Shown: one piece after another, positions 12,863-19,241 of the stretch
Layout of the letters: every line of letters starts with the position of its first letter
Position numbering within the stretch: the first letter of the stretch is position 1
Assembly (NCBI GenBank): GCA_963781885.1
Contig: CAWAHW010000002.1
Location: 800,001-864,000 of the forward strand
DNA from: an uncultured Spirochaetota bacterium
GTDB taxonomy: Bacteria; Spirochaetota; Spirochaetia; SZUA-6; Fen-1364
Length of the DNA stretch: 64,000 bases
Direction: 5' to 3'
Program-made: the position numbers and the translations under genes
The notes under the pieces: model-generated
Databases searched by the model: none
The model's input: only the letters and a program-made list of their open reading frames with translations
Told to the model about the DNA's origin: nothing

Positions 12863-13961
12863 GCTTTCCACTTTTCGACAGGAAGCGGCTTGTCTTCAGG
12901 CCCCTTTCGGAGCGCGCCAACAAGGTGCGCTTCCCGGAGAATGCCATTTCACCCGACGCCGTGCCCGCCGCGCTCTCAGTGAAAGCCGCGCAGACGCTCG
13001 CCGACACCGTGGAGAAGATCAGGAGTGCCCGTGCCGGGGGAAGACCCGTGATCTGCGCGTTCGGCGCGCACACGATCAAGAACGGATTGGGCCCCGTTCT
13101 CATCCGGCTGATCGAAGACGGGTGGATCACGCACCTGGCCACAAATGGCGCCGGTATCATCCACGACTGGGAGCTCGCCTTCCAGGGACGCACGAGCGAA
13201 GACGTGCGGGTGAATGTCGCGCGCGGCGAGTTCGGGATCTGGGAGGAAACGGGCCGGTACATCAACCTTGCGCTGCTTGTCGGCGCCGCGGAGGCAAAAG
13301 GATACGGCCAATCCATCGGCGCGCTGATCGCGACGCAGGGCCTCGACATACCGTCCCGTGCAGAGCTGCACCGGCAGGCCGCCGCGCTTCTGGACGCCGA
13401 TCCTGAAAGGGCGGCCGCTGCCGCGGACCTCCTTGCAGCGGTGCAGGATTTCGACATCCCGGCGGCCGGCTGGAGGTGCCGCATCCCTTCCGCGCGTCGA
13501 GCCCGCAGGCCGCGGCATACGCGCGGGGCGTGCCATTCACCGGCCACCCGATGATCGGCCACGACATCATTTACACGCATCCGCTCAACAGCGGCGCCGC
13601 CGTCGGCCGAACGGCGCTGCGGGATTTCCTCCTGTACGCCGAGGCGGTGAGCAGGATCGAGGGCGGGGTCTACCTTTCCGTGGGCTCGGCCGTCATGTCG
13701 CCCATGATATTCGAAAAATCCCTCTCCATGGCCCAGAACATCGCGCGCCAGGAGGGGAGGTCCATCACCACTCACTACATCCTGGTCGTCGATCTTGCCG
13801 AATCCGCCTGGGATTGGAAGAGGGACGGGGAGCCGCCGGCCGACAATCCCGCCTATTACCTGCGTTACGCCAAGAGCTTTGCGCGCATGGGCGGGACGCT
13901 GGCTTTCCTCCCGGCGGACAACAGGGATTTCTTTCTCTCGCTCCTGCACGCGCTGGCGTGA
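12859..13961 (+). CDS. Conserved hypothetical protein, deoxyhypusine-synthase-like fold (one base missing at about 13460)
   Basis: FGAHTIKNGLGP, HLATNGAGIIHDWE..FQG.TSEDV and LSVGSAVMSPMIFEKSLSMA resemble DHS-like NAD-binding proteins. The ATG overlaps the previous stop; adding one C in the run at 13458-13460 joins the two ORF halves. Confidence 0.55.
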
Positions 13962-14051
13962 CGGGCGGGCGCGCCGGGTCAGCAGTTCTGATATGATGTG
14001 CCCCCGTCAAGCTCTAAAAGCCTCCTTTTTTCTTTAGAACTCCTTCTGAAC

Positions 14052-14256
14052 ATCGAGGCCAACCCGAAGAGATGGAGAAGGGCATAACCGACGATCGACC
14101 AGTCTGATATGCGTGGATTGGTTACCGCAGGCCAATGTGATCGTCAGGAGCTTGCCTCCGTCTCATTACCAGGATCAGACCATAGTCTGCCTGCAGAACC
14201 GCTCGAGGATTCTCCGTTCGCCACGAACCTTCCCCATCCGTCCCGGTTGCCTCGAT
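14052..14256 (-). ncRNA. Predicted bridge/seek RNA of the IS element
   Basis: An imperfect closing stem of about 30 bp (14052-14081 with 14228-14256) encloses two stem-internal loop-stem modules. The loop strands match the target (AATGAGA; AGCGGTTCT) and the circle junction (CATATCAGAC). Confidence 0.8.
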
Positions 14257-14272
14257 TGCATACGCAGCCTCC

Positions 14273-15367
14273 TCAAGCCACCCGATCAACCATCGCGCCC
14301 CACAGGAACCCCGAGAGCTCTCGCGCCACCGCCGTCACCACGGTCTGAGAAGCTTTGCCGCGAAAAAGCAGACGCAGAAATTTCTTGTTTAGCCGCCTGC
14401 ACGCACGGTTGGCATAGCTGACCAAGGATGGAGAAAGACCCTCGCGTCGTTTCATCAACCGAGTGCTACTGGGATGGTAGCTGCGGTATTGCCAGGCGGC
14501 CTCCACCAGAAGTTTGCGCAGGTGGGAATTACCCGCCTTTGTGATTCCTCCCAAGCGCCTCTTGTTTCCGCTGGATCGCTCGGAGGGCACCAACCCCAAA
14601 AACGCCATGAATTGATCCGCACCTGCAAAGCGCCGAAAGTCCCCGATCTCCGAAACAAGCGACAAGGCGATCAGCGTCTCCACGCCCTTGAACGCCTTCA
14701 GCTTGGCTACAGGTTCGGCATAGCTTTTACGTGCCGCGATCTCTTCGATGCCCGCCTTGATCCGCCGACACTTCTCCTCCAGCTCGTCGACTTGGCAGCG
14801 GTACTCGGTGAGAGTCAACTGCTCCAGCGGATCCTCCAACTCAAGAGCCTGCAACCATGCTCGATGCGGCTGCGTCCATGTGGCTCCTTGTTCATAACGT
14901 ATCCGCCTCCGCAGAAGAAAACCCAGCACGCGCTGCTTGGCCTTGCGCAGATCGGACTTCATGTCCTCCAGCATTCGTAGATAGTCGCGAACCGCTTCGT
15001 CTTCCCGCGTGGGTACATGAACGGCACTCACATCCCCGCTCCGAAGTGCGCGAGCAAGCATCACAGCGTCCCTTCTATCGGTCTTTATGCGATCTCCCGG
15101 ACGATGTGGAATCTGAGACGGAGCCAGCACCGCACACGGCACACCCAGTTCCGTCAATTGTCGATACAGGGAATACCCTAGACATCCCGCCTCGTAGCAT
15201 GTCACCAGGTCCCCCGCGGACTGGAGCTTCTTGAAATAGGCCTGGATTACGCTCTTTTCATTGCGAATCACCGTCTCGGCCCTCGGCTTCTGATCGCGCC
15301 CGCTCAGGATCGCTATGGCGATCTTTTCTTTGTCGACGTCCATGCCAACGTAATGTACAATACCCAT
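14273..15367 (-). CDS. IS110-family DEDD recombinase/transposase (364 aa)
   Basis: RuvC-like DEDD residues in YVGMDV, CYEAG and KTDRRDA; C-terminal EIGDFRRF...AFLGLVPSERSSG...GITKAGNSHLRKLLVEAAW with the conserved serine; the ORF is intact. Confidence 0.95.
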   Translation of the reverse strand: MGIVHYVGMDVDKEKIAIAILSGRDQKPRAETVIRNEKSVIQAYFKKLQSAGDLVTCYEAGCLGYSLYRQLTELGVPCAVLAPSQIPHRPGDRIKTDRRDAVMLARALRSGDVSAVHVPTREDEAVRDYLRMLEDMKSDLRKAKQRVLGFLLRRRIRYEQGATWTQPHRAWLQALELEDPLEQLTLTEYRCQVDELEEKCRRIKAGIEEIAARKSYAEPVAKLKAFKGVETLIALSLVSEIGDFRRFAGADQFMAFLGLVPSERSSGNKRRLGGITKAGNSHLRKLLVEAAWQYRSYHPSSTRLMKRREGLSPSLVSYANRACRRLNKKFLRLLFRGKASQTVVTAVARELSGFLWGAMVDRVA

Positions 15368-15594
15368 GACTGCCCCCTTGTGCGTTGTTTGTGGCGTGCC
15401 GCATCGAGACGCCAATCTCATGATACGGCCGATCCACGTTGTAGCAACCACCTGGGGGCACTTCATATTGTCTCATTTTGGACCTTTCTGAGGTCTGGAA
15501 CGTATGCAGACTTGGAAAACGGCCTTTCATTAAGGGACAAAATGAGAACTGCATCATTCAGTCACCATACTGAGAATTGCTGGCGCCGGGTTTC

Positions 15595-15623
15595 TTGTCA
15601 CAACCGGCGATTTGCGATAGTAT
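15595..15623 (+). promoter_or_regulatory. Sigma70-type promoter of nifJ
   Basis: TTGTCA-17 nt-TAGTAT upstream of ATG 15670. Confidence 0.5.
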
Positions 15624-15669
15624 CCCTGTCAAAGTCCTCAACACCCTTTCACGAAAGAAGGTTTCACAT

Positions 15670-19241
<3,572 letters not shown>

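Follow-up and report, generated by a model that had tools for sequence, protein, structure and literature searches.

The window, a stretch of 64,000 nucleotides (C2:800001-864000, a contig of genome G000; all positions are given as window coordinates), carries on its plus strand nifJ, which starts at 15670 and was identified by its pyruvate:ferredoxin oxidoreductase domains. Upstream of nifJ lies a segment of 1603 bp (13980-15582). As the initial annotation had noted, this segment is bracketed by a perfect 9-bp direct repeat, GCGCCGGGT, at 13971-13979 and 15583-15591; the chance of a perfect 9-bp match at two fixed junctions is about 4e-6 to 7e-6. The segment starts with CAGCAGTTCT (13980-13989) and ends with TGAGAATTGCTG (15571-15582), the final bases to 15582 being GAGAATTGCTG. 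It consists of a 119-bp MITE and a 1484-bp IS1111-type element (13990-15473), and the insertion point of the latter is 10 bp from the left tip of the MITE. The features of the locus are as follows.

13971-13979, no strand: left copy of the 9-bp target-site duplication of the MITE, GCGCCGGGT, with a single GCGCCAGGT at the empty site in the relative G005.
13980-13989, plus strand: outer 10 bp of the left terminal inverted repeat of the MITE, CAGCAGTTCT, identical in 8 of 8 readable IS-bearing copies.
13990-15473, minus strand: IS1111-type insertion sequence, 1484 bp including one copy of the core dinucleotide, with 9 copies in the genome and boundaries that equal the conserved ends of its relatives.
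13991-14005, minus strand: right-end subterminal inverted repeat of the IS (in transposase orientation), with an adjacent TTGAC conserved in relatives.
14064-14241, minus strand: predicted conserved structured RNA in the 3' noncoding region, with a scaffold like that of a seekRNA or bridge RNA (RNAalifold on 8 sequences).
14102-14111, minus strand: candidate donor guide CAUAUCAGAC, equal to the predicted circle junction CATATC-AG-AC and conserved in relatives.
14161-14167, minus strand: putative 3' target guide AAUGAGA, predicted to pair with TCTCATT on the other target strand and covarying with the flank.
14195-14203, minus strand: putative 5' target guide AGCGGUUCU, predicted to pair with the target AGAACTGCT through 8 Watson-Crick pairs and one G:T pair and covarying with the flank.
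14273-15367, minus strand: gene of the DEDD transposase, 364 amino acids, with PF01548, PF02371, and GLVPSERSSG.
15454-15468, minus strand: left-end subterminal inverted repeat of the IS, upstream of the transposase gene.
15474-15582, plus strand: remaining 109 bp of the MITE, with the inner left repeat CATTTTGG, an internal repeat copy (15537-15554), and the right terminal repeat (15565-15582).
15583-15591, no strand: right copy of the 9-bp target-site duplication.
15595-15623, plus strand: promoter-like TTGTCA-17-TAGTAT ahead of nifJ (ATG at 15670), found by consensus scan only, in a stretch conserved in G005.

The MITE inserted between the upstream gene and nifJ, 10 bp past the stop codon of the former and 78 bp ahead of the start of the latter, and the core promoter of nifJ seems to have been left intact, judging by the promoter-like match. 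Because the insertion lies just upstream of this match, it may matter for nifJ.

Excision of 13990-15473 in silico restores a left end that reads CAGCAGTTCT followed by CATTTTG. This restored end had been described as inverted relative to the right end of the segment. At the right terminus proper (15565-15582), this holds for 15 of 18 positions, giving imperfect 18-bp terminal inverted repeats, but the perfect inverted partner, GCAGTTCTCATTTTG (15/15), is a subterminal repeat at 15538-15552. The description of the 119-bp remainder as free of open reading frames and AT-richer than its flanks was accurate: its GC content is 0.437, whereas the 500-bp flanks have 0.66 and 0.61 and the window as a whole has 0.646, and its longest stop-free stretch has 39 codons. 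A profile search recovered 14 copies in the genome, 9 with the IS and 5 solo. The full IS-bearing copies contain 119 to 122 bp of MITE. Each solo copy has its own duplication (four perfect, one at 8/9), and of the 13 MITE copies in this genome with readable duplications, 12 have 9-mers that agree at 8 or 9 positions. The small element thus fits a MITE by every structural criterion.

The IS reads from AGACAATATGAAGTGCCCCC to GGGGGCACATCATATC in transposase orientation. Close to both ends it has a 15-bp subterminal inverted repeat, ATATGA(A/T)GTGCCCCC, which matches at 14 of 15 positions between the ends, is conserved in 8 relatives, and agrees in length with the 11 to 13 bp or more expected for the IS1111 group, and its noncoding regions measure 283 nucleotides downstream and 106 nucleotides upstream of the transposase gene. 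The transposase scored 50 bits with PF01548 (cutoff, 29), 78.6 bits with PF02371 (cutoff, 21.3), and 237 bits with NCBIfam NF033542, the IS110-family RNA-guided transposase (cutoff, 140). We favor its start at 15367 over that at 15466 because the homologues have 364 amino acids. The names of its database neighbors are generic only, and its only relatives with solved structures, IS621 and ISCro4, are distant (E = 1e-7). The sequence GLVPSERSSG agrees with the motif GL-P----S(t)G of the IS1111 type, and GL-P----SG is the motif given for IS1111-type transposases in the available part of PMC11187229. The only dinucleotide common to both junctions is CT (AG in transposase orientation), and there is no duplication beyond this core. 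As expected, CT, the last two bases of CAGCAGTTCT, would then be the crossover core shared with the IS. The subterminal repeats, the long downstream noncoding region, the GL-P----SG motif, and the core-only duplication together assign the IS to the IS1111 type. Outside the subterminal repeats, the IS extends by 3 bp at each end if the core is assigned to the right, and by 5 and 1 bp if it is assigned to the left; the 7 (or 6) and 3 bp given in the same source are the usual lengths for the type and not its definition. The TTGAC beside the right-end repeat could possibly serve as the −35 element of a circle-junction promoter.

A BLAST search of the genome with the 1603 bp found 7 full IS copies, one interrupted by a run of N, and one with an internal deletion, as well as several further matches that cover the last 110 bp of the unit alone. 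These counts, like those of the MITE, refer to a genome with 92.55% completeness, minus 16,000 masked bases, and further copies may exist. All nine IS copies sit at the same position and in the same orientation in a MITE, and none lies outside a MITE end in this genome. With a slash at the junction, all nine are joined to the MITE at TGTCT/CATTTTGG; the other junction, readable in eight of them, is CAGCAGTTCT/GATATG. The arrangement CAGCAGTTCT/IS/CATTTTG recurs in a single orientation across the copies. When the full copies were split at TGTCT/CATTTTG and the two parts compared separately, the seven IS parts, each of 1484 bp, proved to be 99.87 to 100% identical, whereas their host MITEs are only 71 to 95% identical (mean, 80%). 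The duplications flanking the IS-bearing MITEs differ from copy to copy, and the eight readable pairs comprise six perfect 9-mers, one match at 8/9, and one pair that does not match, so that this last copy, on contig C7, has no duplication.

Because the IS parts are nearly identical and the MITE parts are diverged and have their own duplications, these copies represent independent site-specific insertions and not one composite that moved. The data establish the nesting, the specificity for site and orientation, the independence of the insertions, and the order of events: the MITE is older and was later struck repeatedly by a young IS. The initial annotation had seen from the single locus that the IS is nested in a MITE terminal repeat, and the further copies with different 9-bp duplications that it had anticipated are present in this genome; IS copies outside MITE ends, which would have spoken against it, were looked for in the same genome and none was found.

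The genus provides the same order of events from another side. In the nearest relative, G005, the two flanks are joined through a single GCGCCAGGT, which is the empty allele upstream of nifJ that had been predicted; because this site is empty, the insertion of the MITE upstream of nifJ postdates the split from G005. Further members of the genus are without the insert as well, to judge from the distance between their two flank matches. A search of 41 genomes, G000 and 40 others, found close copies of the IS in G000 alone, and more distant relatives, with 68 to 74% DNA identity, are present in four genomes of the genus. The sister species G005 and G019 have 14 MITE copies and 8 plus 3 partial copies, respectively. 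All 18 copies examined from these two species are complete at about 121 bp and unoccupied, with duplications that match at 8 or more of 9 positions when one base of slack is allowed at the ends, and the target is intact in 15 of the 18. Since unoccupied MITEs are numerous in both species, where no such IS was found, the MITE family is older in the genus than the IS.

How does the IS find the MITE end? The initial annotation had suggested an RNA guide programmed against it, and our comparison of relatives supports this idea: two noncoding blocks correspond to the two target strands and change in step with the flanks. A protein search provided 12 related loci, 8 of which were aligned. Among these eight, the IS ends stop exactly at the positions of 13990 and 15473, and the ends and the scaffold in the 3' region are conserved around two short variable blocks. 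The first block, when reverse-complemented, gives the core together with the right flank (AGCAGTTCT here, AGGAATTCT in L024, AGCAATTCT in L025, and AACTGAACT in L026); the second block (AAUGAG here) has the sequence of the left flank and the core. The structure predicted by RNAalifold from eight sequences has 38 pairs, 7 of them with compensatory changes, and both guide blocks lie in one of its internal loops. A single-sequence fold of the 3' noncoding region was no better than shuffled sequences (z = −0.74), and an Rfam search of 13800-15800 returned no family, the only hit being a chance match to an IRES (E = 0.52). The predicted joined IS ends (the circle junction) read CATATC-AG-ACAATATG, and CAUAUCAGAC, which matches them, presumably acts as the donor guide.

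A pattern search with the left end extended the comparison to 26 genome loci and to 116 metagenome stretches, 80 of which were taken as loci. In the distinct loci that were readable, agreement with the flank of the same locus averages 7.31 of 9 positions for the 5' guide, compared with 5.34 after permutation (26 loci), and 4.80 of 7 for the 3' guide, compared with 3.81 (20 loci); none of 5,000 permutations reached either value, although the permutations ignore the relatedness among loci and so overstate the significance. Across these loci, the putative guides and their targets covary. The 3' guide is short (4 to 5 nucleotides plus the core), and its match is imperfect in several relatives.

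The left end is not the only place in the MITE with this target sequence. Every MITE has a further copy of the 12-mer GCAGTTCTCATT toward its right end, in the internal repeat (ATGCAGTTCTCATTTTGT here), and in this genome the IS occupies 9 of the 12 left-end sites that have the 12-mer, compared with 0 of 13 internal copies (Fisher P = 1e-4). In the internal copies, TGCAG replaces the AGCAG of the left end, so that the ninth pair of the first guide is lost; this loss could, at a stretch, explain why the internal repeat is not used. Three left-end sites that retain AGCAGTTCTCATT are empty in this genome.

What moved the MITE in the first place? The initial annotation had expected an autonomous element with the same ends, and a search of the genome for end-like sequences found a DDE IS of 1653 bp with ends that are similar and not identical. 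Its three copies in the genome are identical and are individually flanked by 9-bp duplications of their own; it has the ends CAGCAATTCGCATTATGG and CAGCAATTCTAACTATGG, and encodes a DDE transposase of 446 (437) amino acids. Its ends match those of the MITE at 14 to 16 of 18 positions, with no similarity past about 22 bp. With models for IS4/ISAs1-like (DDE_Tnp_1) transposases, the DDE transposase scored below threshold: PF01609 (19.9 bits; cutoff, 23), PF13808 (20.1 bits; cutoff, 32.3), and the NCBIfam IS4 model (16.8 bits; cutoff, 115). In precomputed annotation, some of its homologues are assigned to PF01609 and PF13808. The family, which has no name, has many members in metagenomes. Seven of 21 genomes of the genus contain the 1653-bp IS; its transposase was not found in G005 or G019, the former genome being 69% complete. 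We regard this IS as a candidate for the mobilizer or parent of the MITE. None of its copies is occupied at either end; at one end there is a mismatch to the second guide, and at the other the CT core is replaced by CG.

Our preferred explanation, to which we give a probability of about 0.88, is that a MITE inserted first and that an IS1111-type element then inserted in its left repeat by RNA-guided targeting. After the split from the nearest sampled relative, a MITE of about 120 bp inserted upstream of nifJ and made the 9-bp duplication, and a recently arrived IS1111-type element then inserted 10 bp inside its left terminal repeat. This element would encode, in addition to its DEDD recombinase of 364 amino acids, a structured RNA from the 283-nucleotide 3' noncoding region. 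Within one internal loop of the RNA, AGCGGUUCU would pair with one strand of AGCAGTTCT (the core plus the outer flank), and AAUGAG(A) with the other strand of CT-CATT, while a second loop bears the block that putatively matches the circle junction. After excision as a circle, the IS would recombine at the CT core of sites that fit, which in this genome would be the left ends of the MITE family, and would so gain many dispersed intergenic landing sites. Each insertion would cut the terminal 10 bp off the MITE and probably block its further movement. We infer that the RNA is expressed, that a circular intermediate exists, that the MITE loses its mobility, and that the IS benefits from the landing sites.

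Could the whole 1603-bp unit instead be one composite that is moved by a DDE transposase in trans? The full copies do align across all 1603 bp, most of them with 9-bp duplications, and the genome does contain a DDE IS whose ends are similar and whose duplications are also of 9 bp. Joint movement, however, predicts equal similarity of the two parts, and the IS part is 99.9 to 100% identical whereas the MITE part is 71 to 95% identical; solo MITEs exist in this genome and, without the IS, in two sister species; and related IS in other phyla end exactly at 13990 and 15473, with flanks that differ beyond these points. We therefore consider movement in trans very improbable. A composite unit, or a single IS with terminal repeats, was ruled out as a candidate structure by the contrast between IS and MITE identity. 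The reverse relationship, in which the solo MITEs would be internal-deletion derivatives of the 1603-bp unit left after loss of the IS, is the least probable of all. Excision by IS110-type elements restores the target precisely, and the solo MITE at C1:386452, which has an intact target, could be a former host; but even precise excision needs a MITE that was there before, G005 and G019 have many diverged MITEs and no such IS, and MITE diversity (71 to 95% identity) is far above that of the IS. Moreover, according to the available text of PMC11187229, 9-bp duplications are not made by DEDD recombinases.

The remaining alternative accepts the nesting and concerns only the mode of recognition. 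The recombinase protein itself could recognize the MITE end, for example by DNA shape or a hairpin, with the matches in the noncoding region being incidental. For this element, the RNA guide rests on sequence comparison, the 3' match is short, and the internal 12-mer copy is never used, which hints at determinants beyond the mapped guides. Yet two blocks covary with the flanks over 20 to 26 distinct relatives while the scaffold around them stays constant, and the layout is the one demonstrated experimentally for IS1111-type seekRNAs (PMC11187229, in the part available). Recognition by the protein is therefore unlikely, though less so than either of the two readings above, and RNA-guided insertion into an older MITE is the explanation that we carry forward.

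Relatives of the IS outside this genome suggest that the choice of target may not be confined to it. In L023 and L051 (Spirochaetaceae), L025 and L063 (Pirellulales), and L121 (a metagenome), the flank on the left-end side encodes a homologue of the DDE transposase that is 46 to 57% identical, with the gene starting about 70 to 100 bp from the junction; L095 and L112 have the same junction as L051 and were counted with it as one event. Because these flanks encode the DDE homologue, the related IS appears to sit in the transposase-proximal end of a full-length DDE IS, 10 bp from the tip. L056 has a 152-bp element with the 10-mer CAGCAATTCT at both tips and no duplication, and it is the only related locus with a convincing inverted partner of the target within about 1 to 2 kb. 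Four loci (L043, L058, L119, and L135) have similar tips, and no DDE homologue was found in the 1.8 to 2 kb of their left flanks. A second, larger clade targets CAACTGAACT/CTATGTTA, and in G018 it adjoins a small gene of 114 amino acids and not a DDE IS. We tentatively consider, as a possibility that we would not bet on, that an IS1111-type lineage has specialized across phyla on the transposase-proximal repeat of one unnamed DDE IS family and its MITEs, with the guide tracking the variants CAGCAGTTCT, CAGCAATTCT, and CAGGAATTCT. In the present genome, the three active-looking copies of the 1653-bp IS have end variants that mismatch the guide or the core, and the old MITE ends match. If the specialization is real, this would fit a conflict of IS against IS, in which the autonomous DDE copies escape and the MITEs absorb the insertions.

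The habit of IS1111-type elements of inserting in the ends of other elements is already published, for IS4321/IS5075 in Tn21 ends and for IS1111 in QMITE2 of Coxiella. IS4321 and IS5075 are also of the IS1111 type, with subterminal inverted repeats and a downstream noncoding region, and they likewise target the terminal inverted repeat of a transposable element in one orientation. Their host element is a Tn3-family transposon with 5-bp duplications, whereas the host here is a small MITE, and in other phyla a DDE IS of about 1.65 kb, with 9-bp duplications. In Coxiella burnetii, 20 of 21 IS1111 copies lie inside QMITE2 (Wachter et al. 2018, PMC5896051). As described in the available part of that paper, the resemblance is close: nearly all copies occupy one position near the MITE end, the duplications of QMITE2 are variable (7 to 11 nucleotides, mostly 9), and IS-free copies represent empty sites between strains. 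The phylum and the MITE sequence differ, however, and the target in Coxiella is a GTAG REP palindrome inside the MITE (PMC5896051), whereas the present IS strikes the MITE's own terminal inverted repeat, 10 bp in from its tip. The guides mapped here have no counterpart in the available part of that paper. A literature search on MITE or IS ends as targets of IS110/IS1111 elements returned the Coxiella precedent and nothing on this DDE family.

The targets listed for the IS1111 family in the accessible portion of PMC11187229 include Tn21 ends, attC sites, and REPs. ISEc11, ISPa11, ISKpn4, and IS621 share with the present element a DEDD recombinase and a structured noncoding RNA; in seekRNAs and bridge RNAs, as in the RNA proposed here, two short segments match both target strands and overlap at the core, and in IS1111-type seekRNAs the segment that pairs with the top strand comes first, 5' of the one for the bottom strand (PMC11187229). 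These four elements target a REP, an attC, or a short linear site, according to the same portion of the source, and the terminal extensions found here are shorter than 7 and 3 bp. IS621 (structure 8wt6) also differs in its protein, with a match of E = 1e-7 over the C-terminal 68 residues only.

New in the present case are the host MITE with its DDE family, the mapping of the guides, and a hint that such elements have specialized across phyla. A recent burst of the IS into old MITEs, with empty sites in sister species, provides a very clean natural record of RNA-guided site choice. The mapped guide pair belongs to a compact IS1111-type recombinase of 364 amino acids and, together with more than 20 natural guide-target pairs, could help the development of programmable recombinases. 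The locus also illustrates how one mobile element uses, and probably disables, another.

The MITE that carries the IS lies directly upstream of a promoter-like site of nifJ:

15595-15623, nifJ promoter-like site, TTGTCA-17-TAGTAT, starting 4 bp past the right duplication

Because the site starts so close to the duplication, all sequence 5' of the -35 element has been displaced by the insertion of the MITE plus IS. Within the MITE, the left end is present a second time as an inverted internal copy, ATGCAGTTCTCATTTTGT (15537-15554), which the other MITE copies carry at the same position. This internal repeat holds the complete 12-nt guide match, yet it is occupied by the IS in none of 13 cases.

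Three further loci of the same genome, all outside the window, concern the history of individual copies. On contig C1 (278052-281318), a copy of the 1653-bp DDE IS and an IS-bearing MITE lie 10 bp apart, and GCTTCTCGG occurs three times, namely, before the DDE IS, in the gap between the elements, and past the MITE. The second element thus appears to have used the first element's duplication as its insertion site, with a one-base offset. On contig C2, some 24 kb ahead of the window (775866-776873), a MITE-nested IS copy has an internal deletion of IS positions 893-1488, so that the transposase gene lacks most of its 5' part; the 9-bp duplication of this copy, GTTTCATCA, remains intact. Only one IS-bearing MITE (contig C7, 155153-156758) lacks a matching duplication (CGCACGCCT versus GGTCCCGCC); it may be the product of recombination between two copies, for which no partner was found.

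The 20-nt left-end motif of the IS also occurs at L041, L042, L046, L047, L050, L052-L055, L057, L060-L062, L064, and L065, mostly in Treponema MAGs. A pattern search of these loci found neither the right end nor the scaffold, and they may represent another element type with a common left end. Three separate records (L051, L095, and L112) contain identical junctions between an IS1111-type element and a DDE IS. At these junctions, the outer 10 bp (GTAAGCTTCT) mismatch the guide (UGCAAUUCU).

The IS has a sister clade whose members insert between CAACTGAACT and CTATG(T/C)TA. This clade comprises L026, L045, L049, and many of the metagenome loci L066-L145, as well as loci in two other genomes, G009 and G018 (L002 and L003). 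The hosts of this CAACTGAACT-targeting clade are Terriglobales, NC10, and Spirochaetota, in addition to many metagenome contigs. Its target is widespread, and its first guide follows the target variants TGAACT, TTAACT, and TCAACT.
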